NCBI GenBank assembly: GCA_028286825.1
Contig: JAQBQV010000002.1
Location: 2,157 to 66,156, forward strand
Length of the DNA: 64,000 nucleotides
Source: Parcubacteria group bacterium
GTDB taxonomy: Bacteria; Patescibacteriota; Minisyncoccia; Phycocordibacterales; Phycocordibacteraceae
Direction of reading: 5' to 3'
In this document: positions 1 through 15,654 of the stretch, in pieces
How positions within the stretch are numbered: position 1 is the stretch's first letter
Layout of the letters: each line of letters begins with the position of its first letter
Notes under the pieces: model-generated
The model's database searches: none
What the model saw: the letters and a program-made list of their open reading frames with translations, nothing else
What the model was told of the DNA's origin: nothing
Position numbers and translations under genes: made by a program

Positions 1-1
1 T

Positions 2-400
2 AAGCCAAGACTTGATCGAGCAAGGGAAATATACAACCAAGTAAAAGAAGAAGGTTTGGTACTTGATGGTGAAGATCTGTGGCGTTTAGGTATGCTCTAT
101 CAGCACAGTGCGGAGCCTGAGGATTATCTCACTGCTATGGAAATAGCGAACATGTCATCGGCTGCAGGAAGCGAGGCTGGAGCATGGCTAACTGCAGCGG
201 CCGAAGACCGGTATCTTCTCTCGGTTGGTAAAGATCAAAAGTGGGGGACTCAGTTTGCAAAAAATGATGAGGGACAGTGGTATCAGCAACCAATGTCGAG
301 TGATGAGGAGTCAGGTATTACTGACGACATGCGGGCGACAAAAGGCATTTCACCCCGAGCCGTACAGATGGAAGAATTCCTTAAGAGGGATGATGTATAG
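2..400 (+). CDS. hypothetical protein (5' end outside window)
   Basis: The frame is open from nt 2 to TAG 398-400. Track ORF 56..400 is the same frame from an internal TTG. I recognise no motif. Confidence 0.5.
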   Translation, partial: KPRLDRAREIYNQVKEEGLVLDGEDLWRLGMLYQHSAEPEDYLTAMEIANMSSAAGSEAGAWLTAAAEDRYLLSVGKDQKWGTQFAKNDEGQWYQQPMSSDEESGITDDMRATKGISPRAVQMEEFLKRDDV

Positions 401-487
401 GTTCCCACGTCGTCCCAGTGACCAATTTCACTTAGAACTGCAAGGAGTTAGTGAAATGGAAATACTCTTGTGGTGGCGGCCAGCTCG
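400..487 (+). repeat. intergenic motif, long form (left half + 55-nt hairpin insert + right half)
   Basis: Sequence is GGTTCCCACGTCGTCCCAG / tgaccaatttcact...cttgtggtg / GCGGCCAGCTCG. Positions 409-469 match 49573-49633 at 59 of 61 nt. Confidence 0.85.
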
Positions 488-496
488 TTAGATTCC

Positions 497-505
497 TGAT
501 ATACT
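497..505 (+). promoter_or_regulatory. extended -10 promoter element, leaderless-type
   Basis: TGaTATACT, with ATG 514 lying 8 nt downstream and no SD. Confidence 0.5.
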
Positions 506-513
506 CAAGCGCG

Positions 514-1161
514 ATGACAATTAAAGACGTCTACAAAAAATTCAACATTCCGCCAAACCTCGAGACGCATATGCTCACGGTCGCGCAGGTGGTGTGCGGC
601 ATCAAAGACCACTGGAAGGGAAGTTCCATTAATTGGAATTTTATTATTGGCGCCGCACTTCTTCATGACGTGGGTAATATAGTTAAGTTTAATTTTGATG
701 CGCACCCAGAGTTCTTAGGTAAAGAGGAGGTCAATATCGAGTACTGGAGAAAAGTAAAACAGGAGGTAATTACGAAATACGGATCGGATGACCATATGGC
801 TAGTGGAAATATGTTAAAAGAAATCAATGTTTCTGCTGAGCTGCACAATTTAATTCAAAACAAATCTTTTTCAAATGCAGTTGAGGTAGCAGAAGGGAAT
901 GACTGGTACTCAAAAATACTCCTTTATGCAGATATGCGTGTGATGCCTCATGGTATAGCAACGCTCGAAGAGCGGCTTTCGGACGTGCGGAATCGTATGC
1001 CGCAATACACATCGCGACCCGACTTTGAATCTTTACTCGATGCCGCTCGAGGTATTGAAGGAGAAATAGCCGGAAATTTGGATGCTCTTATTACCTCAAT
1101 CGAGTGGGGCAAGGTTAGTGATATGGACACAGAGCTGCTGAATCGGACGTTGTCACATTAG
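514..1161 (+). CDS. HD-domain metal-dependent phosphohydrolase
   Basis: Contains the LLHDVGN His-Asp motif. ATG 514 lies 8 nt after TATACT 500-505. The track start at 451 would read through the repeat element. Confidence 0.75.
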   Translation: MTIKDVYKKFNIPPNLETHMLTVAQVVCGIKDHWKGSSINWNFIIGAALLHDVGNIVKFNFDAHPEFLGKEEVNIEYWRKVKQEVITKYGSDDHMASGNMLKEINVSAELHNLIQNKSFSNAVEVAEGNDWYSKILLYADMRVMPHGIATLEERLSDVRNRMPQYTSRPDFESLLDAARGIEGEIAGNLDALITSIEWGKVSDMDTELLNRTLSH

Positions 1162-1168
1162 TGAAAAA

Positions 1169-1199
1169 GGTTCCGACGTCGTACCAAGCGGCGAGCTCG
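1169..1199 (+). repeat. intergenic motif, short form
   Basis: Sequence is GGTTCCGACGTCGTACCAAGCGGCGAGCTCG, about 27/31 identical to the consensus. Confidence 0.8.
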
Positions 1200-1242
1200 T
1201 GAATTAAGGGAAGTTTGATATGCTGAAAGGAACAATATCAAC

Positions 1243-1986
1243 ATGGAAGACATGGTTCAATACAAAGGAGATTTGGCCGATAAATATAGTTCACAAGATC
1301 GATTGGCCCATCCACAGAATATGGTTCCGTATTCAACTTGGCTAGAAGAGCTAGGAGATATTCAGAGTCTTGAAATTCTCGATCTGGCCTGTGGAAGCGG
1401 ATACGGCTCAAGAATGTTGGCTGAAAGAGGCGCTCGTGTCACTGGCGTTGATATTGCTCCAGAAATGATAGCGAAAGCTCAAGAGATTGAAGCGCTGGAC
1501 GCACTCGGTATTACATACATCGTTTCCGACGCAAAGAAGTTGGATCTACATAAGACATTCGACATTGTTGCTCCGTCGTTTTTATTTAATTACGCGAAAG
1601 ATAAACAAGAATTAATTGAATTGATCGCGACAGCCGCAATACATTTGAATACAGGAGGAAGAATGGTTGCCTTGAACGCACCACCGAATCCAATCATCCT
1701 TCGTTTACCCAATGCAAATTCATCCACGGAATGGCTGGGTGAACCAAACAAAGAAGGATCGCTCGTGAGGATGCATTTCTATGACCTTAAAGGAGATTGG
1801 CTCTGCGATATCGATTTTAACTACTGGTCAAAAGAGACATATGAGGAATGTTTTAATTTGGCAGGCTTCACAAATATCGAGTGGGTTCCTATGCGGATGA
1901 CTGAAGAGGGGAAGCGGTTATTGCCTAACTGGCAAGACATAGAGAAAAATATTTGCAGTATCGTCGTCAAAGGAATCAAAGCATAG
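1243..1986 (+). CDS. class I SAM-dependent methyltransferase
   Basis: ILDLACGSGYGS ... VTGVDIAPEMI matches the SAM-binding motif I and post-I acidic loop. Confidence 0.85.
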   Translation: MEDMVQYKGDLADKYSSQDRLAHPQNMVPYSTWLEELGDIQSLEILDLACGSGYGSRMLAERGARVTGVDIAPEMIAKAQEIEALDALGITYIVSDAKKLDLHKTFDIVAPSFLFNYAKDKQELIELIATAAIHLNTGGRMVALNAPPNPIILRLPNANSSTEWLGEPNKEGSLVRMHFYDLKGDWLCDIDFNYWSKETYEECFNLAGFTNIEWVPMRMTEEGKRLLPNWQDIEKNICSIVVKGIKA

Positions 1987-2042
1987 ATTCAATAGCGGGC
2001 TCAACAAGCCTAAGCTGCTGTCTCACGATCTCTTCTCAAAAA

Positions 2043-2072
2043 AATCCCATGTCGTACCAGACGGCCAGCTCA
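2043..2072 (+). repeat. intergenic motif, short form
   Basis: Sequence is AATCCCATGTCGTACCAGACGGCCAGCTCA. Confidence 0.8.
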
Positions 2073-2078
2073 TAGGGG

Positions 2079-2084
2079 TATAAT
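2079..2084 (+). promoter_or_regulatory. -10 box, leaderless-type
   Basis: TATAAT, with ATG 2091 lying 6 nt downstream and no SD. Confidence 0.5.
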
Positions 2085-2090
2085 AATGAC

Positions 2091-2423
2091 ATGTTTATCA
2101 AGGCTAGGAAAATACTCATAAATGCATTTCCAGTAGCATTAATGATTATTTTAATCCCAATCGTTTTAAATGATTTTCTTCTTGCGGCACTGTATCTTGT
2201 GATCGCGATCATCTCTTTAATGACGCGGCACGAGAAAAACGATTATCTCGCATATGTATTCGGTCTGGTTGTGATCACCATCTCTGAATATTTTTTTATC
2301 CAGACGGGAGTGGAAACATTTATGCGAAATAGTCTTTTTGGAATAATGCCAGTTTGGCTGCCCCTTTTATGGGCATATGCCTTTGTTGCCATAATGAGAT
2401 CGCTCAGAGTTTTAGATCAATAA
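2091..2423 (+). CDS. small integral membrane protein
   Basis: 110 aa with three hydrophobic segments. TATAAT 2079-2084 lies 6 nt upstream of the ATG. Confidence 0.6.
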   Translation: MFIKARKILINAFPVALMIILIPIVLNDFLLAALYLVIAIISLMTRHEKNDYLAYVFGLVVITISEYFFIQTGVETFMRNSLFGIMPVWLPLLWAYAFVAIMRSLRVLDQ

Positions 2424-2424
2424 A

Positions 2425-2452
2425 GGTTCCCACGTCGTACCAGACGGCCAGC
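2425..2452 (+). repeat. intergenic motif, short form
   Basis: GGTTCCCACGTCGTACCAGACGGCCAGC, an exact consensus match, 1 nt after the stop of 2091..2423. Confidence 0.9.
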
Positions 2453-2474
2453 AAAATAAGTAATGATTAGCTAC

Positions 2475-2588
2475 TTAAGCGGTTGGCCGAAACCAATCCG
2501 TGAACCAAGAGACGTATACAAGAATGCCGAGGAAGAAAATAACAATAGCTGATGCAATGAGGGCAATCCATTTAAATAGCTGTTTCAT
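2475..2588 (-). CDS. 37-aa single-pass membrane peptide (candidate)
   Basis: Below the track cutoff. Translation is MKQLFKWIALIASAIVIFFLGILVYVSWFTDWFRPTA. GGAGGT lies 16 nt upstream. It sits alone between two motif copies. Weakly supported. Confidence 0.35.
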   Translation of the reverse strand: MKQLFKWIALIASAIVIFFLGILVYVSWFTDWFRPTA

Positions 2589-2618
2589 TCAGGGATTATC
2601 GCATACCTCCGACACAGT

Positions 2619-2649
2619 GGTTCCCACGTCGTACCAGACGTCGAGCTCG
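2619..2649 (+). repeat. intergenic motif, short form
   Basis: Sequence is GGTTCCCACGTCGTACCAGACGTCGAGCTCG, 29/31 identical to the consensus. Confidence 0.9.
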
Positions 2650-2673
2650 AGATAACAATGGTAATTCCTTGTT

Positions 2674-3273
2674 ATGAACAGTCAGAATAAGATAGGACCG
2701 CAGGATTGGTATCATGGGCGAATGAAACAACCTATCAGGCGTAAAGGGTTCACACTCATTGAGTTGCTTGTTGTTATTGCGATTATTGGAATTCTATCAG
2801 CAGTAGTCGTTGCAGCAACTTCGTCATCTCGCATAAAAAGTCGAGATGCGGCACGCGTCTCATCAATTCGACAAATACAATATGCGCTTGCTCTGTACCA
2901 TAGTACAAACGGAGCCTATCCTCCCTGTCTTTACGTCAGTGCCTGCGGAGCTTCTTCACTTGAGTCCGCATCTCCCTCGGTCATGAAATCTGTTCCAAAA
3001 GATCCCTTGAGTGGCCTGAACTATTCCTATGCTGCAGTTGGGTCAGGATCATCTTGTACCTCATATCATCTCGGTGCATCTCTTGAAGATAAGACAAATC
3101 GAGCAATGCAGGCAGGGGCCGACGCACCAGCTAGTAGTGTTTGTACAGGTAGTGCTGTGGATTTCTCAGGTCTTTCCTATGCAGCTGCGGGGCAGTTATG
3201 TAATCTTATTGCTGGAACGCCACAACCCACAGCAGCTATAAATGGGGAGACATGCTACGACGTTAAGCCCTAG
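2674..3273 (+). CDS. type IV pilin / pseudopilin-like protein (prepilin N-terminal cleavage/methylation domain)
   Basis: KG|FTLIELLVVIAIIGIL is the class III signal peptide motif. An alternative start at 2722 (MKQPIRRKG) is possible. Confidence 0.85.
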   Translation: MNSQNKIGPQDWYHGRMKQPIRRKGFTLIELLVVIAIIGILSAVVVAATSSSRIKSRDAARVSSIRQIQYALALYHSTNGAYPPCLYVSACGASSLESASPSVMKSVPKDPLSGLNYSYAAVGSGSSCTSYHLGASLEDKTNRAMQAGADAPASSVCTGSAVDFSGLSYAAAGQLCNLIAGTPQPTAAINGETCYDVKP

Positions 3274-3300
3274 ATTGCTTATTGTTACGGCTGTAAAAAA

Positions 3301-3330
3301 GTTCCCACGTCGTACCAGACGGCCAGCTCG
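3301..3330 (+). repeat. intergenic motif, short form
   Basis: GTTCCCACGTCGTACCAGACGGCCAGCTCG, an exact consensus match. Confidence 0.9.
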
Positions 3331-3335
3331 TACTA

Positions 3336-3341
3336 TATACT
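3336..3341 (+). promoter_or_regulatory. -10 box, leaderless-type
   Basis: TATACT, with ATG 3348 lying 6 nt downstream. Confidence 0.5.
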
Positions 3342-3347
3342 TAGCTC

Positions 3348-4277
3348 ATGTCTGGAAGTTCTCGACAGGAGATACGCGTTGGAGTGCTTATGTATACCTA
3401 TGATCGCGTTGATGATGCGCGAGTCAACATGGAAATAATTCGAAATGTCTGGTCGAAAGTTCCCTTGCTCAAAGATGTAGTCGTTGTACACGCGTATAAC
3501 GGTAACCAAGATTGGTGGCCAGAGGCGTATTTAGAAAATACTCTTTGTCGCACAGACAACCCAGGACATTTTAGCGGTGCAGAGCTTCTCCTCAATACAG
3601 GCATTCAAGTTTTCAAGGAAAAATATCCAGACATCACGCATGTTGTTGTTCTCGCTTCTGATACGTGGTGTGTTAAGCCTGAATATATACAAAATGTCAT
3701 TCAAGAGATGGTATCTAAAGAACTCTATCTTGCAACAAACGCGTGGGGTAGTAAGAAAGATACAAATATGTTCAAAATTGGTATGGCGCTCGATTTATTT
3801 ATTCTAGACATGGATTTTGTAAAGAAGTCTGAATTTTTTCCTTTAAACTACAAGAGCTTTGGTGACAAATACGGAGAACTTCTTATGTATCGAGGCACTT
3901 TCGCGTTTCTTGAGCGTGTGTTTGCCCTTAGGTTTAAGCAGGCACTCATGAGAATTGCTCCTATTCCAAGTGAAAATCTTATTGAGAAGGTTGCCTTAGC
4001 TCACCTCTATCATATGCGTGAACGTGAACCAGTACATTATGAGCAAAAAGCTTTTTTCAAAAAACCTATAGGGAAGAGGCACATGTATTGGCCAAAAATT
4101 GGGTTATTGACCCATCATGATCCGGTCGAGAAACGGCGCGCACTGAAGGAATATCGTCTCTCGCTAGGCGAGCACGGAAGACGTTTCCTTGAGGCAAGGG
4201 ATTTCAAGTATTTTAATCAAGGGAAAAATAAAACCACTTTTGTGAAAGGAGCCAAAACTATCGACTACAACGACTAA
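3348..4277 (+). CDS. hypothetical protein
   Basis: 309-aa ORF. TATACT 3336-3341 lies 6 nt upstream of the ATG. No motif I can name with confidence. Confidence 0.6.
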   Translation: MSGSSRQEIRVGVLMYTYDRVDDARVNMEIIRNVWSKVPLLKDVVVVHAYNGNQDWWPEAYLENTLCRTDNPGHFSGAELLLNTGIQVFKEKYPDITHVVVLASDTWCVKPEYIQNVIQEMVSKELYLATNAWGSKKDTNMFKIGMALDLFILDMDFVKKSEFFPLNYKSFGDKYGELLMYRGTFAFLERVFALRFKQALMRIAPIPSENLIEKVALAHLYHMREREPVHYEQKAFFKKPIGKRHMYWPKIGLLTHHDPVEKRRALKEYRLSLGEHGRRFLEARDFKYFNQGKNKTTFVKGAKTIDYND

Positions 4278-4282
4278 ATAAA

Positions 4283-4313
4283 GCTTCCCACGTCGTACCA
4301 GACGGCCAGCCCG
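4283..4313 (+). repeat. intergenic motif, short form
   Basis: Sequence is GCTTCCCACGTCGTACCAGACGGCCAGCCCG. Confidence 0.9.
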
Positions 4314-4334
4314 TGATACGATTTATATAACGTC

Positions 4335-4565
4335 ATGCCAAAGAAGAGACAGACATCAAAGACCTACAAGCATTACCACAAAGATGGGAGTTTGTGGGCA
4401 GAAGGGAAACTGGTAGAAGGGCAAATGGAAGGCTTTTGGAAGTGGTTTCGAAAAGATGGCACCAAAATGCGTTCAGGCTATTTCAAATCAGGAAAGCAGA
4501 GCGGCAAATGGACGACCTATGACAAAACAGGCGGAGTCGTTAAAGTTACAGACTTTGGTAAATAA
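4335..4565 (+). CDS. MORN-repeat (YwqK-like) protein
   Basis: Contains repeated G-x-W-x-x-[FY]-x-x-x-G-x units (EGFWKWFRKDGTKMRSGYFKSGKQSGKWTTYDKTG). Confidence 0.75.
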   Translation: MPKKRQTSKTYKHYHKDGSLWAEGKLVEGQMEGFWKWFRKDGTKMRSGYFKSGKQSGKWTTYDKTGGVVKVTDFGK

Positions 4566-4620
4566 GTTCTAATTTTGTACTGCAACTATTCCAGCATGGA
4601 AGCTGTTATATACTGCACAC

Positions 4621-4875
4621 ATGTTTAGCTCAAGGCAGACGGCGCTCTTAATCTTGGCTATCACTGCTGTCGTGTGTTCCCGGGTAATGTTTTCGCTCTT
4701 CAATGATCCTGAGGGTCCCAATCTACTGGTGGTCATGGGGATGGCAGCAATCCTCTATTTCCTATCTTTGGCGGCATATATATACAATCCCTTAGAAACC
4801 GGCCTCAAGAATCTTGTACTAACTATTTTCATCCAGGTACTACTAGCTACCGGTCTTTATTTCTGGTTGAGTTAA
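4621..4875 (+). CDS. small integral membrane protein
   Basis: 84 aa with three hydrophobic segments. TATACT 4609-4614 lies 6 nt upstream of the ATG. Confidence 0.6.
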   Translation: MFSSRQTALLILAITAVVCSRVMFSLFNDPEGPNLLVVMGMAAILYFLSLAAYIYNPLETGLKNLVLTIFIQVLLATGLYFWLS

Positions 4876-4876
4876 A

Positions 4877-4906
4877 GTTTCAACTTCGTACCACAATGCC
4901 AGCTCC
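4877..4906 (+). repeat. intergenic motif, degenerate short form
   Basis: Sequence is GTTTCAACTTCGTACCACAATGCCAGCTCC, 1 nt after the stop of 4621..4875. Confidence 0.6.
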
Positions 4907-5023
4907 TTAAGCCAAGGTAAGCATTTACTCATAATTTCCAGCTGTCAAGAAAGTGCCAGGTCTAAGATAACTGCTTATCCCCCTATTTACGATTGTATGA
5001 TCTGGGTCGCGTATACTAACCCC

Positions 5024-5533
5024 ATGAACACAACCAATAAGAGGATAATAATCGCAGTTATCGTAATACTACTCGTAGCTGGTGGTCTATGGTTTATGAC
5101 GACTCGGTCTTCAAACACGAGCGACACCCTTGGCACCCCAGATAATTCAGGGCAGGCAGATCAGGTAACAAAGAACGGTCAAAGCGTTACGACGAAAACA
5201 ACCACCACGACCGCTACCTCGTCGCCTGCGGATGTAACCGGGCAAATCGAAATCGGCATGAATCAAACAGGAGGAGCGTTCGGGGTAACCATCACTCCGG
5301 ATCAGGTGGTAGAAGATAGCCGCTGTCCGACGGACGTGAAGTGTATCCAGGCCGGCACGGTTCGAGTACATGTACTCTTCAATGGAGTAACGAGCCAGAC
5401 TATCGCCATCGGCGATCGAATAACGCTTGGAGGAGAGGCAGTCACTCTTCTACAGGTAAAGCCAGCTAAAGTCTCAACGGTCACCCTTAAAAATTCTGAT
5501 TATCGCTTCGTCTTCAAGATTGAGCAGCCCTAA
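5024..5533 (+). CDS. membrane-anchored/secreted hypothetical protein
   Basis: Has an N-terminal TM segment and a Thr-rich linker. TATACT 5012-5017 lies 6 nt upstream of ATG 5024, so the track start 4997 is less likely. Confidence 0.6.
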   Translation: MNTTNKRIIIAVIVILLVAGGLWFMTTRSSNTSDTLGTPDNSGQADQVTKNGQSVTTKTTTTTATSSPADVTGQIEIGMNQTGGAFGVTITPDQVVEDSRCPTDVKCIQAGTVRVHVLFNGVTSQTIAIGDRITLGGEAVTLLQVKPAKVSTVTLKNSDYRFVFKIEQP

Positions 5534-5550
5534 TCACTTTTGCTGTTGTG

Positions 5551-5650
5551 ATTACTCACGTCGTACCGTCGATTTAGAAGACAAGAGGCAGGGTCATTGT
5601 GTTTTCTAAAGTACTCCTATGACATGACTTTGAGGTAGTGGCGGCCAGCC
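5551..5650 (+). repeat. intergenic motif, split form with unrelated insert
   Basis: The left half is ATTACTCACGTCGTACCGTCGA (5551-5572) and the right half is GTAGTGGCGGCCAGCC (5635-5650). The 62-nt insert can form a TTTAGAAgACAA / TTGTgtTTTCTAAA hairpin. Confidence 0.55.
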
Positions 5651-5724
5651 AAGTGCGTAACTGAGGTGATGGCCGGCTACAGACAAGAAACAAAAGCTGA
5701 GGTGATACAATCTAGATACGTAGT

Positions 5725-8283
5725 ATGCTAGCCTTGCGTAAGTCGTGCTTATTTTTAACCGTTATCTTTGTGTGCGGTGTCTATTTTGCATTGCCTCCTG
5801 TATTGTCTGCGGCAGAGCGAGGAGCGCAATCAGACAGTATTGGTACAGGAGCAGAATATGCGCCGTCTGAAGTTCTGGTCAGGTATAAAAAGTCAGGTGT
5901 CAATTTGGAAACATTTGCGGGTAGAAACGTCGCGTCAGATATAAGCAAGCGCAAATTCCTTGCAATAGAGGAGCATTTCCAGAAAGAGAACATCTCTCTT
6001 TTGAAAATTAAGGACAGAAGGTCAGTTGAGGAGGTAGTCGCAGAGCTCAAGAACGACCCAAACGTAGAGTACGCAGAGCCAAATTATACTCGGAAGATCT
6101 CAGTGATTGGTTCTAACGATACTCACGCAGCTCTTCTTTGGGCTCTCGACAACTCAGGTCAAACGATACCCGGAAGTTTCGGCACGATCGCGGGTACTGT
6201 CGATGCGGACATTGATGCCCCCGAAGCATGGGCGATAAGCGAAGGAGGGGATGCAACTGTAGTTGTCGCCGTTATTGATATTGGTGTCTTGTACTCGCAT
6301 CCCGATCTACTCGCAAATATGTGGGATGGAACGAACTGTAAGAGTGACACAGGTGCTGCTCTAGGCGAGTGCAGTCATGGGTACGACTATCAGGACAACG
6401 ACAAAGACCCGCTGCCGTCGGGAGGAGCTTCTCACGGCACGCATGTGTCGGGAGGTATTGGAGCCGTGAAGGATAACGGGGCAGGCATTACGGGCGTTGC
6501 TCCCCATGTGAAAGTGATGGCTATGCGATTTGCGCTCAATGTTTCCTCTGAGATAAAGGCGATCGACTTTGCGATTCAAAATGGCGCGAAAATAATCAAT
6601 GCTAGCTTTGGTGGACCAGGATTTTCACAGCTCGAATACGATGCGATAGAGCGCTTCAAAGAAGCCGGAGGCATTTTCGTCGCTGCAGCAGGGAATTGTG
6701 GGGATGCGGCCACCTTTGCTGCCAATGGGTGTTCAAGTCAGAATCAAGTCCTTTACCCGGCAGGTTACGATTTGTCGAATATTATCTCTGTAGCTGCCAC
6801 TGCTCAGGACGATACGCTTGCAACGTTCTCAAATCACGATCAAACATGGGTTGATGTCGGCGCACCGGGTACGAACATCTTAAGTACTATCACCGGAAAT
6901 GCCTACGCTTACTCAAGCGGCACTTCGATGGCTGCGCCATACACGGCTGGGCTTGCAGCGTTACTATGGGGATACAACAACGATCTTTCATTTGCGGAGG
7001 TAAAAAGTCTCATCCTTGATAATGGAGATATTGAAGATTCTCTTGTCGGTGCCACAGTCTCAGGGAAAAGGATCAATGCTCAGAAATCGCTTTTTGGTGC
7101 AACTATTTTATATGCAGACTCGCTTCACGATGGAGCTGTAGAAGGAGTGGGTCCCGACCTGTACGCAGTCGGGTCTAGGGCGATTCTTCAAACAGCGATA
7201 GATGTCGCGACAGAGATCAAAAATAACAGCGAATCCTCTGACGCCGACATAACCGCAGCCGTCGTTGACTTACGTGCGGCTCTCACGACATTTCTTGCTG
7301 CGCGCAATCCGGAATTTTCAAATCTAACAGCTCTCACTCTTGCCATCAGTAGCGCGCAAGCCGTTCTGGCTTTGGCAGAAGAAGGGACAGTGCCCGGGCA
7401 CTACGCTCTCGGCTCGATAGCAACTTTGAATACTGCACTGGATTTAGCGCTCCTCATTACTGATGGAGACTCGCAAGCAACAGTAGATGCATCCGTCGTA
7501 GCACTAAATGCTGCTGTCCAGGCGTTTCAAAATGGCAGAGTTTCCCCAGTCATTACTACTTCGCTTGACACTGGCGGTTCAATAAACCCATCTGGGTCAG
7601 TCGTTGTCTCTTATGGGAGCGATCAGATGTTTACAATAACTGCTGACAGCGGGTACGCGATCAAAGAGGTTTTAATTGATGGCATATCCGTTGGCACAAA
7701 TGGCACGCAACTCTTTAGTAACGTAGTCGCTCACCATGTGATAACGGCTACTTTCGATCCGGTTACTTTTAGCAGTGTTTCCGTTGGTGGAGGTGGAGGT
7801 GGAGGAGGAGGTGGTGGTGGAGGCGGCGGTATTTCTTCGTCAGCGCCGCCAGCTCCGGTAGTAGCTCCGATTGTGAAAGCTGTCCCAATCACCCAAACTA
7901 AACCGAGTGACTGCAAGCCAGGCTTCTTGTTCAGTCCATCAACGGGACTTTCGTGTGGACCCCTGCCAGACTCATCAGATTTGCCGCGCTTCTTACTCGC
8001 ACAGGCCAGCGCTCCTCTAGAGACCGCCGCTGCGCCATTCCTATTCAACAGAAATCTCACGCTAGGAACTGTCGGAGCAGATGTGAGGCAGCTACAAATC
8101 TACCTTAATGCGCGTGGCTTCATTGTCTCAGCAGCAGGTGTTGGGTCAGTTGGGAATGAAAGTACTTATTTTGGAGCGTTAACCAAGAAGGCACTCGCCG
8201 AGTATCAAAGCGCAACTGGTATTAGCCCGGCCGCTGGCTACTTGGGACCCGTTACGAGAGCATATGTTAATACCCACCAGTAG
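5725..8283 (+). CDS. secreted subtilisin-like (S8) serine protease with poly-Gly linker and C-terminal peptidoglycan-binding domain
   Basis: Signal peptide present. Catalytic triad contexts are VAVIDIGV (Asp), HGTHVSG (His) and SGTSMAAP (Ser). The C-terminus (LTLGTVGADVRQLQIYLN...YFGALTKKALAEYQ) resembles PG_binding_1. Confidence 0.9.
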   Translation: MLALRKSCLFLTVIFVCGVYFALPPVLSAAERGAQSDSIGTGAEYAPSEVLVRYKKSGVNLETFAGRNVASDISKRKFLAIEEHFQKENISLLKIKDRRSVEEVVAELKNDPNVEYAEPNYTRKISVIGSNDTHAALLWALDNSGQTIPGSFGTIAGTVDADIDAPEAWAISEGGDATVVVAVIDIGVLYSHPDLLANMWDGTNCKSDTGAALGECSHGYDYQDNDKDPLPSGGASHGTHVSGGIGAVKDNGAGITGVAPHVKVMAMRFALNVSSEIKAIDFAIQNGAKIINASFGGPGFSQLEYDAIERFKEAGGIFVAAAGNCGDAATFAANGCSSQNQVLYPAGYDLSNIISVAATAQDDTLATFSNHDQTWVDVGAPGTNILSTITGNAYAYSSGTSMAAPYTAGLAALLWGYNNDLSFAEVKSLILDNGDIEDSLVGATVSGKRINAQKSLFGATILYADSLHDGAVEGVGPDLYAVGSRAILQTAIDVATEIKNNSESSDADITAAVVDLRAALTTFLAARNPEFSNLTALTLAISSAQAVLALAEEGTVPGHYALGSIATLNTALDLALLITDGDSQATVDASVVALNAAVQAFQNGRVSPVITTSLDTGGSINPSGSVVVSYGSDQMFTITADSGYAIKEVLIDGISVGTNGTQLFSNVVAHHVITATFDPVTFSSVSVGGGGGGGGGGGGGGGISSSAPPAPVVAPIVKAVPITQTKPSDCKPGFLFSPSTGLSCGPLPDSSDLPRFLLAQASAPLETAAAPFLFNRNLTLGTVGADVRQLQIYLNARGFIVSAAGVGSVGNESTYFGALTKKALAEYQSATGISPAAGYLGPVTRAYVNTHQ
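7786..7830 (+). repeat. GGN trinucleotide run encoding a 15-residue poly-Gly linker
   Basis: There are 15 consecutive GGT/GGA/GGC codons inside 5725..8283. Confidence 0.95.
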
Positions 8284-8323
8284 TTCATGTGTTATTTACT
8301 CGAATCACATATACTGGAATCCT

Positions 8324-8581
8324 ATGGATACCGAGGACCAGAACAAACAGAATCAGGAGGAGTTTAAGGTGGATGGGGAAGAGCTTATTCGTAAAGTGAA
8401 GGAACTGATAAAAGCGGGCAATGCCCGAAGGATTATCATTAAGAATGACGTGGGCGAATCACTCATTGAAATCCCTCTCACAATTGGCGCAGTTGGAGCT
8501 CTCATTGCTCCCGTTCTCGCTGCAGTCGGAGCGATTGCTGCCTTGATGACGAAATGCACCATTGTTGTCGTGAAGAAATAA
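8324..8581 (+). CDS. DUF4342-like small protein
   Basis: ELIRKVKELIKAGNARRIIIKNDVGESLIEIPLTIGAVGALIAPVLAAVGAIAAL matches the pattern. TATACT 8310-8315 lies 8 nt upstream of ATG 8324. Confidence 0.65.
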   Translation: MDTEDQNKQNQEEFKVDGEELIRKVKELIKAGNARRIIIKNDVGESLIEIPLTIGAVGALIAPVLAAVGAIAALMTKCTIVVVKK

Positions 8582-8618
8582 AGACGGATTCCTGATTCTT
8601 AACATGAAAGGGGGTAGT

Positions 8619-8689
8619 GGTTCCGTATTCGTGCCGGTGACCTGACTGCAATGAGTTAGCGAAATGGCAATACTCTTGTGTCGAAGCTG
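8619..8689 (+). repeat. intergenic motif, degenerate long form
   Basis: GGTTCCGTATTCGTGCCGGTGACC...GAGTTAGCGAAATGGCAATACTCTTGTG aligns with the 400-487 element, with an internal deletion. Confidence 0.6.
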
Positions 8690-8694
8690 AATAA

Positions 8695-8724
8695 CAAAAA
8701 AGACCCGCGCTTGGGTCTTTTTTG
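8695..8724. terminator. bidirectional rho-independent terminator
   Basis: Sequence is AAAAAAGACCC gcgctt GGGTCTTTTTT. Confidence 0.75.
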
Positions 8725-8749
8725 TTACGTGTCTTCTACTGTTCCTCGC

Positions 8750-9196
8750 TTAGCCTTGCGCGGTTTGTTTTGGGTCAAAGTCGACCATCCATTCAATGCC
8801 AAATTTGTCTCTAAACATTCCAAAGTATGTTCCCCAAGGACTGTCTCCAATAGGCATTTCAACGGTACCGCCCTCTGAAAGTCCGTTAAATAAGGTGTCT
8901 GCTTCTTCGCGACTGTCTGCGCTAATTGCTATCTTAGATCGGTTTTCGTTTTCACTTACTTGGCCCATGCTGTCTGGAATGTCATTGGCCATCAGTGTGT
9001 TTTGACCAATAGGCAATGCGATATGCATTATCTTATTTGCGTCGTTCTCAGCCACAGGAAATCCTGGACTTGAGAGGTCTTTGAAACGAATAATTTTTGC
9101 AAACTCTCCGCCGAAAACCGATTTATAAAACGTAAATGCTTCTTCAGCATTTCCATTAAAGTTAATGTGAGGGTTGATATGTGTCATATGGCTCAT
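8750..9196 (-). CDS. VOC (glyoxalase-fold) family protein, PhnB-like
   Basis: HINFNGNAEEAFTFYKSVFGG ... FGIEWMV matches the family. The start was chosen at MSHMTH; the track start 9256 is an N-terminal extension. Confidence 0.7.
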   Translation of the reverse strand: MSHMTHINPHINFNGNAEEAFTFYKSVFGGEFAKIIRFKDLSSPGFPVAENDANKIMHIALPIGQNTLMANDIPDSMGQVSENENRSKIAISADSREEADTLFNGLSEGGTVEMPIGDSPWGTYFGMFRDKFGIEWMVDFDPKQTAQG

Positions 9197-9298
9197 TATA
9201 TCAAACGCTAGGTACATACAGAGCAGCGGTGGCAACGGCGAACTGAATCCCGCCACAGCGGGTTTCCGTTATGAGAAATGAGATCGAAACGGGTGATC

Positions 9299-9775
9299 TT
9301 AACCGCGACGCGCTGCGTCAATAGCGTCCACATCAATTTTTTTCATTGTCATCATTGCTTCAAACGCACGTTTTGCTTCAGCGCCACCTGCTGCCATAGC
9401 ATCAGTTAGCGTGCGTGGCGTGATCTGCCAGGATATTCCCCAACGATCCGTACACCAACCGCATTGACTTTCTTTACCGCCATTCTCAACAATCGCATTC
9501 CAATACCGATCCGTTTCCTCTTGATCATCTGTTGCGATCTGAAATGAAAATGCTTGCGTGCGCTCGAATGCCGGACCGCCGTTAACGCCAACACAAGGAA
9601 TTCCACTGACAATAAACTCCACAGTTAGCACATCCCCCTCCTTACCATCTGGATAATCGCTGGGCGCATTATGCACAGCAGTAACCTTACTGTCGGGGAA
9701 AGTTGCGGCGTAAAAGCTGGCTGCGTCCTCAGCGCCTGATTCGTACATAAGGCAAACGGTATTTTTTGGTGTCAT
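9299..9775 (-). CDS. VOC family protein (PhnB / 3-demethylubiquinone-9 methyltransferase-like domain)
   Basis: Contains FYAATFPDS ... ETDRYWNAI ... QCGWCTDRWGISWQI. It is a paralog of 35386..35877. Confidence 0.75.
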   Translation of the reverse strand: MTPKNTVCLMYESGAEDAASFYAATFPDSKVTAVHNAPSDYPDGKEGDVLTVEFIVSGIPCVGVNGGPAFERTQAFSFQIATDDQEETDRYWNAIVENGGKESQCGWCTDRWGISWQITPRTLTDAMAAGGAEAKRAFEAMMTMKKIDVDAIDAARRG

Positions 9776-9972
9776 AGTTGTAAGTGATTGAATTGTTAGT
9801 ATATCTAATATTTGAATGAAGGATCTTGCGTCTAAGTTTTTTACGTAAAAGGTTGGTAGCTAGCACACTCTAGCCATGCTTTTGTCGTCTACTCAAGTAA
9901 TGGATTTGAAGTAAGGTATCGACTGCACACAGTCACGAAATAAACACATAACCTCTGGTATACTCAAAATAT

Positions 9973-10308
9973 ATGAAAAATTTCACTGTTATATATATGG
10001 CGCCGGCCGCAGCAATGGAAGAATGGATGCAAAAACCTGAAGCGGAGCGTAAGGAGGCGGAAACTAAAATGAAGACGGGGTGGGACGCATGGATGGCCGC
10101 GCACACCGATACGGTCCTCAATACCATTGCCCTCGGAAAGACTAATCGAGTGAGCGCGTCAGGTGTTGAAGCAGTTAAAAACGACATGATGCTGTCTTCG
10201 TATGTGCAAGGAGAAACGCTTGAAGCGGTTGCGGAGGTATTTAAGGATCATCCGCACTTCGGTATCCCAGGGGCCACCATTGAAGTGATGGAGACGCGTC
10301 CAATGTAG
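9973..10308 (+). CDS. hypothetical protein
   Basis: 111-aa ORF with TATACT 9957-9962 upstream. No recognised motif. Confidence 0.55.
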   Translation: MKNFTVIYMAPAAAMEEWMQKPEAERKEAETKMKTGWDAWMAAHTDTVLNTIALGKTNRVSASGVEAVKNDMMLSSYVQGETLEAVAEVFKDHPHFGIPGATIEVMETRPM

Positions 10309-10345
10309 GGCTCTGACGATCCTAGCGTAGTAGAAACATGGACAG

Positions 10346-10377
10346 AAAATCCCCCGTCTCTTAAAGAGGCTAGCTCG
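10346..10377 (+). repeat. intergenic motif, degenerate short form
   Basis: AAAATCCCCCGTCTCTTAAAGAGGCTAGCTCG has the same CGTC-N13-AGCTCG spacing as the consensus. TAGAAT follows 5 nt later. Confidence 0.5.
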
Positions 10378-10394
10378 TGGGGTAGAATAGGTGT

Positions 10395-10973
10395 ATGAAA
10401 AAAATTGTCTTAGGGATACTGATCACTCTTGCTGTTTTGATCGTGGCCTTTTACACAGTTAACGCGTATATCTACCATGAAAAGCAGGCGACTGCAGTGG
10501 CCAATTATAGAGATGGCGAATACCGCATTGAGGGATCGTCGGTAACCCTCAAGGGCGGTGTTTCTATTGTTGAAGCAGCACCTGGCTCTGCCTCGAAAGT
10601 AACTACTCGTTATTTTGGCAATGATTATATGGTTGATCTGGACGGGGACGGGCGCGAGGACCACGTCTTCTTACTCACACAAGAAACAGGCGGCAATGGA
10701 GTTTTTTATTATGTCGTCGCAGCCCTTAACACTAAGCGAGGATACATTGGTTCTGATGGATATTTTCTTGGCGATAGGATTGCTCCTCAAACGGTGGGAT
10801 CGAGCCAAAATCCCCGACACCAGAATGTCATTGTTGTGAACTATGCAGACCGTGCTGTGGGCGAACCCGTGACCGCTAAACCTTCGGTTGGGGAAAGTGT
10901 GTATCTTAAACTGGATCCGACGAGCATGCAGTGGGGAATTGTTGAGCCAAATTTTGAAGGAGAATCAAATTAG
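10395..10973 (+). CDS. membrane-anchored hypothetical protein
   Basis: N-terminal TM segment. TAGAAT 10383-10388 lies 6 nt upstream of the ATG. Confidence 0.6.
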   Translation: MKKIVLGILITLAVLIVAFYTVNAYIYHEKQATAVANYRDGEYRIEGSSVTLKGGVSIVEAAPGSASKVTTRYFGNDYMVDLDGDGREDHVFLLTQETGGNGVFYYVVAALNTKRGYIGSDGYFLGDRIAPQTVGSSQNPRHQNVIVVNYADRAVGEPVTAKPSVGESVYLKLDPTSMQWGIVEPNFEGESN

Positions 10974-11056
10974 GTGTTCAGGAAGGTTCCCAAGTTTATA
11001 TCACCCATCAATCCTGTGGTGTGTCCATGCGGTAGTGATGTCAGCTCATTGGAGAA

Positions 11057-11473
11057 TCATCGCGGATGATAACTCCTCCAAAGAGTGCGCCATGGTTGAT
11101 AAAGTAAAAAGACTATTACCCCTACGAGCGCAGAATTCGCACCAAGAAGAAAGAAGTATGCAAACCAACAGCACTCTTTCGCATAAAAATAGTAAGGGAT
11201 CTTTGTATGACAGGCGACCAGATTTGTATCGGGTGCTCCAGTTGCACGTGCAGCCTCGGCTTCTCGCATATACTCTGCAATTGTTGCATGCATAAAGGTG
11301 AAAAAAACTGCCGCTACGCCGAAATATTCAATTAACCCCTTATGAGTCGCAAGGGCAACCGTGACAAGTACAATAAGTACCAGCGCACCCTCAACGTGAT
11401 ATGTTTTACAGTTAAATAATTTTTTGATCTTTTCCACCACAACTACAGGGATATAGGAGATTTTATTTTTCAC
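11057..11473 (-). CDS. integral membrane protein
   Basis: 138 aa with several hydrophobic segments. Confidence 0.55.
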   Translation of the reverse strand: MKNKISYIPVVVVEKIKKLFNCKTYHVEGALVLIVLVTVALATHKGLIEYFGVAAVFFTFMHATIAEYMREAEAARATGAPDTNLVACHTKIPYYFYAKECCWFAYFFLLGANSALVGVIVFLLYQPWRTLWRSYHPR

Positions 11474-11522
11474 GATAAAGAGAGTATATCAAAGGACTTA
11501 ACGTCCTTTTGGCCTCTAGAAA

Positions 11523-11623
11523 GGTTCATGTCGTACCAAATCTACACCCATGTTTCAAGGCTCTCAGGAAACGGGTGAGCATTCTAAGGTGCCTAAATAA
11601 CTTATACCCCGGCTCAGCTTGCG
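11523..11623 (+). repeat. intergenic motif, split form upstream of lexA-like gene
   Basis: The left half is GGTTCATGTCGTACCAAATC (11523-11542) and the right-half-like sequence is CCGGCTCAGCTTGCG (11609-11623). The insert is unrelated. Confidence 0.45.
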
Positions 11624-11624
11624 T

Positions 11625-11648
11625 TTAGAGCAATTGCTCTAATATACT
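11625..11648 (+). promoter_or_regulatory. 18-bp perfect palindrome (candidate LexA operator) abutting -10 box of lexA-like gene
   Basis: TTAGAGCAATTGCTCTAA (11625-11642) is followed directly by TATACT (11643-11648), and the ATG is 6 nt later. Confidence 0.6.
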
Positions 11649-11654
11649 GTGGGT

Positions 11655-12218
11655 ATGACTGACGCCAAAGACAAAATCGCCAACTTCTACCGCAAGCGCC
11701 GCCGGATGCCATCGCATACCGAGGTCGCGAAGCTTCTCGGCTACAAATCTCGAGGTGCGACGGCCTATGCGATCCAGAAGCTCGTAGACGCAGGAGTTGT
11801 GTCTAAGGATAAGACCGGCAGACTTCTGCCTGGTGAGCTGCAATATGGGTTAAAAATGCTGGGCTTGGTCGAAGCTGGTTTCCCATCAGCAGCTGAAGAG
11901 GAACTCCTCGACGTCATGAACTTTGACGAATACCTCACTCCCAACAAGGAGTCGAGCTATATCTTGAAAGTGAAAGGTGACTCAATGATCGAAGCGGGTA
12001 TCCAAGAAGGGGACATGGTTATCGTCGAGCGCAGGCAAAGCTATAAGCCCGGACAAATTGTGATTGCTTCTGTTGATGGAGAGTTCACTATTAAATATCT
12101 GCGCAAAGGGCAAGGAGGTTACTTTCTTGAACCAGCTAACTCAAAATACAAACCTATTTACCCAGAACAGACGTTGAACATCGAGGCGGTAGTTACGGCA
12201 GTAGTACGCAAATACTGA
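11655..12218 (+). CDS. lexA: LexA-like repressor / S24 self-cleaving peptidase
   Basis: N-terminal winged-HTH region, an Ala-Gly site (VEAGFP), a Ser in VKGDSM and a Lys in FTIKYL. ATG 11655 lies 6 nt after TATACT 11643-11648. Confidence 0.85.
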   Translation: MTDAKDKIANFYRKRRRMPSHTEVAKLLGYKSRGATAYAIQKLVDAGVVSKDKTGRLLPGELQYGLKMLGLVEAGFPSAAEEELLDVMNFDEYLTPNKESSYILKVKGDSMIEAGIQEGDMVIVERRQSYKPGQIVIASVDGEFTIKYLRKGQGGYFLEPANSKYKPIYPEQTLNIEAVVTAVVRKY

Positions 12219-12219
12219 T

Positions 12220-13527
12220 ATGGCGTGGGGTTCCATACGTTCCTACCCGCGCGCCATCCTCCACGTAGACGGAGATTCTTTCTTTGTATCTTGTGAGGTA
12301 GCAAAAAATCCCTCCTTGAAAGGAAAGCCTGTAATCACTGGGAAGGAGCGGGGTATCGTATCCGCAGCGTCATACGAGGCGAAAGCGAGGGGCGTGAAGC
12401 GAGGTATGCGGTTATTTGAGGTGAGGCAGATTTGTCCTAACGCGGTGATACTCCCCTCAGACTACGAGACGTATAGTCTCTTCTCTGAGCGCATGTACAG
12501 AATCGTGCGCAGGTATACGCCCGCGGTAGAGGAGTACAGTATAGACGAGTGCTTCGCTGACCTTACTGGTCTGCGCGGAAAACTGCACTTGAGCTATGAG
12601 CAAATCGCACAAAGGATAAAACACGATCTTGATACTGAGCTCGGGATGACATTTTCAATCGGCGTATCAGCAACAAAGACGCTTGCAAAGATCGGCTCTA
12701 AGTGGAAGAAGCCATCAGGCCTCACTATGATTCCGTTACGAGATAAGCCAGTCTTCTTGGAGAAGACTCCTGTCGGAGCCGTGTGGGGGGTTGGTCCGAA
12801 CACAGCAGCGTTGCTTAATACATGGGGAGTACGGACTGCACTCGACTTTGCGAAAAAGCCTGAGGCTTGGGTGAAAGAGAGGGTGTCAAAACCATACTTT
12901 GAGACCTGGCAGGAGCTAAATGGAGTTGTTTCAAATGAGCTCGATGTAGACGGAAGGAAGGGATACAAATCGATTAGCAAAACAAAGACTTTCACTCCGC
13001 CATCTACGAGCCCAACATTTGTATATGCTCAGCTCTCAAAAAACATTGAGAATGCCTGCATCAAGGCTCGTCGGTGGGATTTGGTTAGTCCGGTTATTTA
13101 CTTTTATATTTTGACGCAAGACTTTCGTTACCACTCCTATGAGATTAAACTTCCATATCCAACAAACGTTCCGCAAGACATTCTGAAAGAAGTGTCAAAA
13201 TATTTCGCAACATTGTTCAAAAAAAATACGGAGTATCGAGCCACAGGAATTATTCTTGCCAAGCTCTCTGACGGTAAAACAGTCCAGCTCGACCTCTTTG
13301 GCTCAGTCCAAAAGTCCGAAGCCATTAAACGGGTGTTTGAGAGCGTCGATACGATGTCTGAAAAGTTTGGGAAGCATACTATTTTTCTTGGGTCCAGCTT
13401 TGAAGCCATGACCCATTCAGCACATCTCGGGGATCGGGGCGATGTCACCAATCGTGTCGTCAGCTTGTTTAAGGGCGAGACAAAGCGGAGACGTCTAGGA
13501 ATCCCTATGCTTGGCGAGGTCAGATAG
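12220..13527 (+). CDS. Y-family DNA polymerase (UmuC/DinB-like)
   Basis: Contains ILHVDGDSFFVSCE and YSIDECFADLTG catalytic motifs. There is a 1-nt gap after the lexA-like gene. Confidence 0.9.
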   Translation: MAWGSIRSYPRAILHVDGDSFFVSCEVAKNPSLKGKPVITGKERGIVSAASYEAKARGVKRGMRLFEVRQICPNAVILPSDYETYSLFSERMYRIVRRYTPAVEEYSIDECFADLTGLRGKLHLSYEQIAQRIKHDLDTELGMTFSIGVSATKTLAKIGSKWKKPSGLTMIPLRDKPVFLEKTPVGAVWGVGPNTAALLNTWGVRTALDFAKKPEAWVKERVSKPYFETWQELNGVVSNELDVDGRKGYKSISKTKTFTPPSTSPTFVYAQLSKNIENACIKARRWDLVSPVIYFYILTQDFRYHSYEIKLPYPTNVPQDILKEVSKYFATLFKKNTEYRATGIILAKLSDGKTVQLDLFGSVQKSEAIKRVFESVDTMSEKFGKHTIFLGSSFEAMTHSAHLGDRGDVTNRVVSLFKGETKRRRLGIPMLGEVR

Positions 13528-15365: not shown

Positions 15366-15390
15366 GTTTCCCACGTCGTACTAGTGGCCC
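15365..15390 (+). repeat. intergenic motif, short form
   Basis: GGTTTCCCACGTCGTACTAGTGGCCC overlaps the last base of the stop codon of 15012..15365. Confidence 0.75.
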
Positions 15391-15393
15391 ATT

Positions 15394-15402
15394 TGTTATA
15401 GT
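15394..15402 (+). promoter_or_regulatory. extended -10 promoter element, leaderless-type
   Basis: TGtTATAGT, with ATG 15409 lying 6 nt downstream. Confidence 0.5.
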
Positions 15403-15408
15403 TACGCT

Positions 15409-15654
15409 ATGAAAAGTGTTGCTTCAGAAACACCTCACAAAATACCGACGGATTTACGAAAGGCCTTGTCTACGGCTCCTAAGGCGCAAGCAACGTGGGA
15501 AGATATCACGCCGCTGGCCCGCAATGAGTGGATTTGCTGGGTTACATCTGGCAAAAAAGCGGAAACGAGGAATATTCGTATAGAAAAGGCACTCTCGAAA
15601 CTGAAGGGCGGAATGCGTAGGCCCTGCTGTTGGGTTGGCTGCCCTCACCGCTAA
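15409..15654 (+). CDS. YdeI/OmpD-associated family protein
   Basis: Contains WEDITPLARNEWICWVTSGKKAETRNIRIEKAL. The extended -10 TGtTATAGT 15394-15402 ends 6 nt upstream of the ATG. Confidence 0.75.
   Translation: MKSVASETPHKIPTDLRKALSTAPKAQATWEDITPLARNEWICWVTSGKKAETRNIRIEKALSKLKGGMRRPCCWVGCPHR

Follow-up and report, generated by a model that had tools for sequence, protein, structure and literature searches.

What kind of sequence recurs between the genes of a Parcubacteria group bacterium, always on one strand, and is split in several of its copies by a hairpin-forming insert? The question is raised by a 64,000-nucleotide (nt) stretch of GenBank assembly GCA_028286825.1 (contig JAQBQV010000002.1, positions 2,157 to 66,156 of the forward strand), referred to below as the window, in which about 14 copies of a motif, GGTTCCCACGTCGTACCAGACGGCCAGC, are found. 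Our best explanation, held at slightly less than even confidence, is that the motif is an attachment (att)-like junction site of a tRNA-anchored cassette array, and that the insert is a miniature, non-autonomous hairpin element that lands in the motif.

The material consisted of the 64 kb of the source genome and of short metagenome contigs, which carry L numbers (L201 and L249 are one contig). The original prediction, made from the window alone, offered three readings of the insert: a small hairpin element that prefers the motif as target, the centre of a full-length site comparable to the attC sites of integrons, or a riboregulator in which a Shine-Dalgarno sequence and a start codon are sequestered. 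It did not see the proposed nature of the motif as a junction of a tRNA-anchored cassette array.

The motif

The motif of about 28 nt can be written as GGTTCCCACGTCGTACCAG followed by ACGGCCAGC, the boundary between the two parts being the point at which the element enters. All convincing copies lie on the plus strand and in intergenic gaps, and the motif usually starts 0–7 nt past the stop codon of the preceding gene. Conservation by position is high at motif positions 3–28 and collapses straight after the terminal CAGC; 26 of the 28 positions are conserved across genomes whose backbone genes are only 70% identical. Both halves of the motif occur more often than by chance, with 13 matches to the left half in the window (1.2 expected) and 10 matches to the right half (1.65 expected). 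Five of the approximately 14 copies are split, with left and right parts 35–75 nt apart. Short forms outnumber long forms both in the window (about 9 versus 5) and elsewhere (about 35 versus 5).

The short forms are arranged mainly as an array between single genes (1169–1196, 2042–2069, 2425–2452, 2619–2646, 3300–3327 and 4283–4310, all on the plus strand), the last member of which, at 4876–4903 (+), is decayed. Another decayed short copy directly follows the ClpP cassette (50382–50406, +), and a solitary copy with a decayed right part (15366–15391, +) precedes a gene for an 81-amino acid (aa) protein, whose homologue in L185 has a different neighbour. The short motif itself does not behave as a hairpin: its folding energies are unremarkable (z −0.1 to −1.4), no consistent compensatory changes were found among its copies, and the frequent variant CCAACATCGT breaks a potential CGTC/GACG stem that is compensated in one copy only.

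The first long form begins with the left arm GGTTCCCACGTCGTCCCAG (400–418, +), which starts within the stop codon of the open reading frame (ORF) at 56–400, and ends with the right part, or core, GCGGCCAGC plus TCG (476–487, +), after which TATACT (500–505) and the leaderless-looking ATG of an HD-domain protein gene (514) follow. At the second locus, the 5' remnant of the motif, AAAGTT (49507–49512, +), has been pushed aside by an inverted element, the 15-nt middle block CCCATGTCGTCCCAG (49568–49582, +) has element 5' ends on both sides, and the ClpP cassette starts directly after the core ACGGGCAGC (49641–49649, +). The last 8 nt of this core, CGGGCAGC, are identical to a displaced copy of the tRNA-Gln 3' end in L249.

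Two further split copies that had been described are also real. The one upstream of the subtilase gene (5555–5649, +) consists of the left part CTCACGTCGTACCG, an insert of about 72 nt with the hairpin TTTAGAAGACA/TGTTTTCTAAA and the tail GTACTCCT, and the core GCGGCCAGC, which is thus common to 476–484 and 5641–5649. The other (11523–11618, +), upstream of an S24-peptidase/DinB pair, has the left part GGTTCATGTCGTACCA, a hairpin-containing insert of about 71 nt that differs in sequence from the 57-nt element, and the core-like CGGCTCAGC. The pair itself occupies 11649–13527, where the gene for a DinB-family polymerase directly follows that for the S24 (LexA/UmuD-like) peptidase.

The hairpin element

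The element is a non-coding unit of 55–58 nt with conserved ends (5' CGACYWATTT to GAAGTACTCYTGTGRTG 3', in short CGAC to GTGRTG) and a covarying stem of 9–10 base pairs with one bulged A. Direct copy 1 (TGACC to GTGGTG, 57 nt) is located at 419–475 (+) and direct copy 2 (58 nt) at 49583–49640 (+), with covariance model scores of 89.6 and 87.7 bits respectively; both fold better than their shuffles (z −2.0 and −2.25). In the predicted fold of copy 1, CCAATTTCACT (422–432) pairs with AGTGAAATGG (450–459), leaving one A bulged, AAGGAG (442–447) lies in the loop, and an ATG (456–458) follows at a spacing of 8 nt. Positions 409–469 and 49573–49633 differ at 2 of 61 nt, and a repeat search extended the match to 404–469 and 49568–49633 (95% identity over 66 nt). 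The 59/61 identity, the bulged hairpin, the AAGGAG and ATG coordinates and the translations of the three mini-ORFs had all been given correctly; the two-copy description had missed an inverted, diverged copy at 49513–49567 (−), inserted between GGTT and CCCAYG of the motif (79.7 bits). The third, internally deleted relative at 8619–8689 (+) was confirmed as a degenerate long form (29.8 bits, E 1e-4), with a decayed left arm (8619–8637), a deleted element (8638–8680) and a decayed core; a bidirectional terminator and then minus-strand genes lie downstream of it.

The element is spread across genomes in both orientations, with four copies in the window, three in L249 and one in L250. Inverted copies were found with an element profile on the minus strand upstream of copy 2 of the window and at two places in L201; the inverted subfamily thus comprises, outside the window, two copies in L201/L249 and one in L250. 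Its members have the same ends and, in the alignment, the bulged A at the same place, with a different interior and an AT-rich stem. The direct copy of L201 reads GGTTCCCACGTCGTACCAG, 57 nt of element and ACGGCCAGC, so that it lies exactly between CCAG and ACGG. Its stem, TTTCTCT/AGAGAAA, differs from that of the window, TTTCACT/AGTGAAA, on both sides of one pair. The search for compensatory substitutions that had been proposed gave a positive result: in a six-sequence alignment the 10-pair helix is 94% paired (43–54% in slid registers), and two pairs change on both sides, one from C:G to U:A (three sequences) and one from A:U to U:A (one sequence). A covariance model built from this alignment recovers all known copies, and its next match, the best outside the training set, is the insert at 5551, although weakly (14.5 bits, E 0.32). 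Both the 5551 and 11523 inserts had been called unrelated to the element; for 5551 this does not fully hold, since its insert agrees with the element in the 5' CGA, in the location of the hairpin and in the GTACTCCT tail. From these sequence features it is possibly a distant member of the element family.

The 5' end of the element is always placed against the 15-nt block CCCACGTCGTACCAG on the element's own strand. There are two landing positions, CCAG/ACGG in motif orientation and GGTT/CCCACG for inverted copies. The 5' flanks differ (CCAG, GGG, CCG) and do not form one conserved tetranucleotide, and its two ends, CGACC and GTGGTG, have no more than ACCA/TGGT in common. The elements of the window and of L201 are 88–90% identical, whereas a backbone gene present in both is only 70% identical at the DNA level. 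A metagenome scan with the core of the insert gave no matches, and scans of viral sequences gave none for either the motif or the element tail. We also considered the element as a mini-cassette with left and right halves of its own; its 5' CGACCAA resembles CGGCCAG (5 of 7 positions), but its 3' end is unlike the left arm, and this idea was dropped.

The folding data bear on the possibility that left arm, hairpin and right part together form the full-length folded site, similar to attC with its variable centre, and that the 28-nt form is a minimal derivative. The long forms, at 85–100 nt, fall within the size range of attC, they occur in cassette-like arrays of constant orientation, and in their centre they have a bulged hairpin that has a covarying stem and differs in sequence between 400, 5551 and 11523. 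One of them, 49562–49656, folds as a whole better than its shuffles (z −2.85). However, 398–492 as a whole does not (z −0.10), and the left arm pairs with the element tail in an outer stem no more strongly than with shuffled versions of that tail (155–597 of 1000). Moreover, RYYYAAC and GTTRRRY boxes are absent, the short forms are the large majority and lack consistent compensatory changes, the module is also found inverted at the other position of the motif, and orthologous sites exist in both states (see below). This reading is weakened by these results, and we regard it as improbable.

Filled and empty sites

Two pairs of orthologous sites show the insertion polymorphism of the element without any target duplication. 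The first involves the HD gene that follows long form 1. Its ortholog in L124/L125 (76% aa identity) is preceded by an uninterrupted motif, CTCACGTCGTGCCAG-CGGGCAGC, after which the same TATACT-N6-ATG arrangement follows. The second involves a cassette with a gene for a 76–79-aa protein (78% aa identity between contigs), behind which the motif is intact in L149 and reads GGTT, inverted element, CCCACGTCGT in L249. Excision of the element in silico restores the motif to the base, with no duplicated target base. These empty sites, together with the exact restoration of the motif, the occurrence in both orientations and the covarying stem, make hairpin elements that prefer the motif the best fit among the three readings of the original prediction.

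Two Logan contigs from the source sample (L121 and L123) start at window positions 440 and 49604, inside the repeat. Both starts lie exactly 30 nt before the first downstream divergence of the two copies, which fits a break of the k-mer graph at the repeat.

Cassette arrays in relatives

A metagenome scan with the short motif gave mostly chance matches in high-GC DNA, together with 13 low-GC contigs that contain the exact 28-mer GGTTCCCACGTCGTACCAGACGGCCAGC. A scan of genome contigs with the pattern TCCCAYGTCGTMCCAG gave 120 single chance matches, none of them real. Several of the related contigs carry arrays of one orientation, with 10 copies in 6.2 kb (L164), 6–7 copies in 4.9 kb (L206) and 5–6 copies in 3 kb (L249). 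Some of their cassettes contain minus-strand ORFs of 149–509 aa, and the orientation of the motif is unchanged there. Homologous cassettes have different neighbours in different contigs. The ClpP of L250 is 83% identical to that of the window.

The region 1.2–53.9 kb of the window is absent in L124 between the HD and M14 peptidase genes, the break lying at the motif copy at 1164–1200. The M14 block, 53 kb from the HD gene in the window, adjoins it in L124, and window 1200–53900 therefore looks like a large variable region. In L124:10650–11175 the HD gene (76% identical) is followed almost directly by M14 peptidase, DUF2238 and DUF2339 genes. The content of window 1200–53900 includes a subtilase, glycosidases, the S24 peptidase with DinB, restriction-modification genes and ClpP. 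L126 (9828–10902), from a more distant relative whose HD protein is 65% identical, has the HD gene between tRNA-Arg and tRNA-Gly genes, and the flanking positions are taken by motif copies in the window and in L124.

Anchoring at tRNA-Gln in relatives

Four arrays abut the 3' end of a tRNA, two at called tRNA-Gln genes and two at fragments on the contig edge. In L247 the array directly follows tRNA-Gln(ttg) (5968–6039), and L250 has its tRNA-Gln at 3595–3666; the contigs L164 and L161 start with a tRNA 3' end. The tRNA-Gln genes are flanked upstream by dnaX or an M10 peptidase gene and downstream by backbone genes. The motif core CGG(C/G)CAGC is identical to the last eight bases of the tRNA, and the conservation of the motif stops at CAGC, the same point at which the tRNA ends. 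In the window and in L250 alike, CAGC is immediately followed by the start of the ClpP cassette.

The junction is most precisely defined by two near-identical strains. L247 and L248 carry the same AI-2E protein and are 99.99% identical over 14.3 kb from the boundary between CAGC and AAATCAC onwards. Upstream of it, L247 has tRNA-Gln(ttg), of which CAGC is the 3' end, and L248 has a copy of the motif preceded by other genes. In L250, dnaX and tRNA-Gln are followed by a non-coding element of 170 nt, a direct repeat (17 nt) of the tRNA 3' end, ClpP and more genes separated by motifs; the same chromosomal position holds entirely different cassettes in L247.

Displaced copies of the tRNA-Gln 3' end, a signature of integration, are found within and at the far end of the L247/L249 array. 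The repeats of the tRNA end are GGTCCAAGTCCCCCAGC, 170 nt downstream of the tRNA in L250, ATCCCTGTCGGGCAGC at position 1236 of L249, and GTCCCTGTAGGACAGC at position 9938 of L247, immediately ahead of the backbone gene for the AI-2E transporter.

A second small non-coding element of 125–170 nt, termed el2, is present at L250:3667–3850, L249:1121–1251 and, in reverse complement, at about L234:4530–4711, with a shorter relative in L161. It begins right after CAGC with the hairpin CAGCAAAAAG to CTTTTTGCTG, contains GGATTCGAACGCC and has, at its end, a copy of the tRNA-Gln 3' end of the genome in which it lies. The L250 copy is placed directly between tRNA-Gln and the tRNA-end repeat and resembles an integrated cassette that lacks a gene. 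In the intergenic regions, small modules such as the hairpin element, el2 and the motif form mosaics.

Proposed mechanism

According to the reading as an att-like junction, the array would have grown, in a Parcubacteria clade, as one unit after another was inserted site-specifically at the 3' end of tRNA-Gln. Each cassette would begin just after CAGC, contain one gene, which may have either orientation and usually brings a −10 box and a leaderless start of its own, and reach to the next motif, and a recombinase encoded elsewhere would act on the motif. The hairpin element would be mobilised in trans, probably as single-stranded DNA, as its hairpin and the absence of a target duplication suggest, and it would disable the junction whose arm and core it separates. 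As the data comprise 64 kb and short contigs, about eight element copies and a tRNA anchor in relatives, we infer this mechanism from sequence comparison in three respects: the recombinase, single- or double-stranded substrates, and movement of the element by itself or exchange between motif copies. A wider proposal, in which we have noticeably less confidence, is that of an undescribed integron-like gene-capture system in a Paceibacteria/Kaiserbacteria-like clade. Cassettes would be stacked at tRNA-Gln through a 28-nt site with the last 8–9 nt of the tRNA as core, by a possibly Xer-like recombinase encoded elsewhere, and the system would host the 57-nt element and el2.

Several observations weigh against this explanation. 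No integrase, transposase or other recombinase was found among the approximately 60 ORFs of the window or in related loci (L185, L234, L241, L129 and L248), a result that covers the window, whose array runs off its left end, and the loci read; in the loci read, there was also no integrase next to the tRNA-end att sites. The tRNA anchor is seen in relatives only. The similarity between the consensus motif and tRNA-Gln is not significant by shuffling (775 of 2000; 44 of 2000 for the L124 variant), and the motif as a degraded copy of tRNA-Gln, backed by the 3' core and the L124 variant only, was rejected. The element lacks both the terminal inverted repeats and the target-site duplication of classical miniature inverted-repeat transposable elements (MITEs). 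Every copy seen lies in or beside a motif, and it is possible that the element spread by recombination or gene conversion between motif copies instead of transposition. With only about eight copies in three to four genomes, the stem covariation rests on two pairs. Finally, the conserved AAGGAGT of the loop and its complement ACTCYT in the tail are not accounted for.

Promoters, mini-ORFs and RNA structure

The motif could, alternatively, be a protein-binding regulatory site, such as an operator or upstream promoter element, with the inserts as neutral hairpin indels spread by gene conversion and the arrays as the product of ordinary rearrangement at a repeat. About 80% of the motif copies are followed by a same-strand gene, with the ATG often 46–51 nt after TTCCC and a TAnnnT box 6–8 nt before the start codon; the motif of L124 lies in a divergent promoter region, and the sequences read contained no recognizable recombinase. 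However, the distance from CAGC to the −10 box is variable (6–12 nt, and up to 50 nt), and the idea that the motif acts as a −35 element at constant spacing was therefore discarded. A sigma-54 or extracytoplasmic function (ECF) sigma factor pattern was not found in the motif by eye. The orientation of the motif is kept before genes of the opposite strand, and its conservation relative to the backbone genes is far tighter than is usual for operators. Moreover, the breakpoints between near-identical strains and at tRNA-Gln lie exactly at CAGC, and the displaced tRNA 3'-end repeats signal integration. A regulatory site is, on this evidence, somewhat less probable than even the attC-like full-length site.

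The TAnnnT box, often TGn-extended, is located 6–8 nt before an ATG without a Shine-Dalgarno sequence at window 500–516, 2058–2093, 3320–3350 and 15394–15411 and in intergenic regions of L124. This arrangement suggests leaderless mRNAs for the genes concerned. Other genes have a clear AAGGAG, such as ClpP at 49728. A literature search found nothing on integron-like arrays or leaderless promoters in Parcubacteria.

The third reading of the original prediction, a cis-acting structured RNA or leader-peptide device, would have the hairpin sequester a Shine-Dalgarno sequence and the AUG of the mini-ORF and so control the downstream gene. It draws on the AAGGAG placed 8 nt ahead of an ATG in the direct copies, on the two nucleotide differences in the first five codons of the window and L201 copies, one conservative (I to V) and one synonymous (TTG to CTG), and on the complementarity of the loop AAGGAGT to the tail ACTCYT. 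However, the inverted subfamily has ATA in place of the ATG, and the 5551 copy has no ATG, although the tail is conserved there. The peptides (MEILLWWRPAR, MEILFVMTGSKFDII, MAILLCRS and MEVLLW) diverge after 4–5 residues and have no common length or stop position. The mini-ORF was rejected. Inverted copies are antisense to the array genes, and past the element the HD gene is served by a −10 box and a leaderless start of its own. The Rfam search that had been suggested (Rfam 15) gave no match at the gathering score over the whole window and chance-level matches only (E ≥ 1) on the element loci, with no family matching even at E = 10. An RNA device is very improbable, the least probable of the readings considered.

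Other features of the window

The window is bacterial chromosome with 49% G+C. Its HD-domain protein is 100% identical to JWN18_44 and its AI-2E transporter to JWN18_91, both of a Parcubacteria group bacterium, and the closest named relatives belong to Kaiserbacteria and Paceibacterota. Pfam searches of the window ORFs returned ordinary chromosomal and defence genes, including subtilase, S24 peptidase with DinB, MFS transporter, ClpP, Mrr, C5 methylase and a sigma-54 activator. A phage origin was rejected on these chromosomal genes and on the absence of a megablast match between phages and window 1–12000. A tRNA gene search of the 64-kb window found none.

The sigma-54 activator, an AAA+ protein with a sigma-54 interaction domain (52716–53795, −; Pfam E 4e-52), is encoded here in a Parcubacteria genome. 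Several repeats were also observed. A 56-nt direct repeat with 91% identity that contains GTGGATAGAATTACTTTGAA occurs at 45817–45872, 46406–46461 and 41926–41945, in the restriction-modification region. Positions 45425–45535 are 85% identical to the non-coding L124:7769–7879. Tandem repeats of about 290 nt at 21723–22739 correspond to the repeated fibronectin type III domains of a 1049-aa gene product. In L124 (1063–1269 and 2350–2666), a perfect hairpin repeat, GAATGTGTGAGGTTTAGCCTCACACATTC, is present in three intergenic copies around a ParB-like gene.

Significance

The genomes of bacteria of the Candidate Phyla Radiation (CPR) are tiny, the bacteria themselves rely on other organisms, and little is understood of the ways in which they acquire and exchange accessory genes. 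If true, a tRNA-anchored cassette array would be a concrete and testable mechanism of gene turnover in these bacteria, and would broaden the idea of the gene cassette beyond integrons. The candidate array has a junction site with base-by-base conservation between metagenomes from soil and from groundwater, a gene content that differs between near-identical strains, and cassettes common to different genera. The filled and empty sites of the element mark recent events, and its strict tie to one 15-nt block points to sequence- or structure-guided insertion without target duplication.

Comparison with known systems

The system most similar in organization is the integron, including clusters of attC sites lacking integron-integrases (CALIN). 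Both form arrays of unrelated, mostly single-gene units in which a conserved site, always oriented the same way, closes the 3' side of every unit and a gene is reversed now and then; in both, the cassettes are found in different orders across genomes, and new material lies next to the anchor point. The sites themselves differ. An attC site is an imperfect palindrome of 57–141 nt that folds into a bulged hairpin and is conserved in structure, whereas the motif is 28 nt long and conserved in sequence, and its long forms (85–100 nt) have a covarying inner hairpin and an outer stem that is not above chance. The R'' (RYYYAAC) and R' (GTTRRRY) boxes of attC are found on neither strand of the motif, which on the plus strand starts with GGTTCCC and ends with GGCCAGC. 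The integron anchor is attI, near intI with Pc; the anchor here is the 3' end of tRNA-Gln, and no intI was found in the window or in the related loci read. The cassettes also appear to carry their own −10 boxes, unlike those of integrons.

The insertion sequences (IS) of the IS1111-attC group and the group IIC-attC introns home to the recombination sites of such arrays; they are 1–2 kb long and encode a transposase or a reverse transcriptase. The hairpin element is likewise confined to array junction sites, where it occupies a defined position without target duplication, but it is only 55–58 nt long, non-coding and present in both orientations at two positions of the motif. It also resembles MITEs, the repetitive extragenic palindromes (REP) and palindrome-associated transposable elements (PATE) linked to Y1 transposases (IS200/IS605 or REP-associated tyrosine transposases, RAYT), and the neisserial intergenic mosaic elements (NIME) and Correia elements of Neisseria, in being tiny, hairpin-forming, intergenic, multi-copy and polymorphic in presence or absence. 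Classical MITEs duplicate TA or another target, and the element does not. IS200/IS605 ends have two subterminal hairpins, insertion is strand-specific and takes place 3' of one conserved tetra- or pentanucleotide, and derivatives of this family lack terminal inverted repeats and target duplication. The element agrees with these derivatives in the latter respect; with one hairpin only, and 5' flanks that are not one tetranucleotide, the analogy to IS200/IS605 that had been drawn is not established.

Tandem accretion of non-autonomous elements at a tRNA att site, as cis-mobilizable elements (CIME) and integrative and mobilizable elements (IME), is an established concept (PMC5704250, PMC5812530). 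As in CIME and IME, the array abuts a tRNA 3' end, the inserted DNA is delimited and partitioned by imperfect direct repeats of the tRNA end, and units without their own integrase pile up in tandem. Unlike CIME and IME, the units here can be as small as one gene or a non-coding stretch of 57–170 nt, a conserved 28-mer with partial resemblance to the tRNA end forms the internal sites, and at neither end of the array was an integrase seen. What sets the present case apart is units the size of integron cassettes and an internal site that is unusually short and conserved in sequence.

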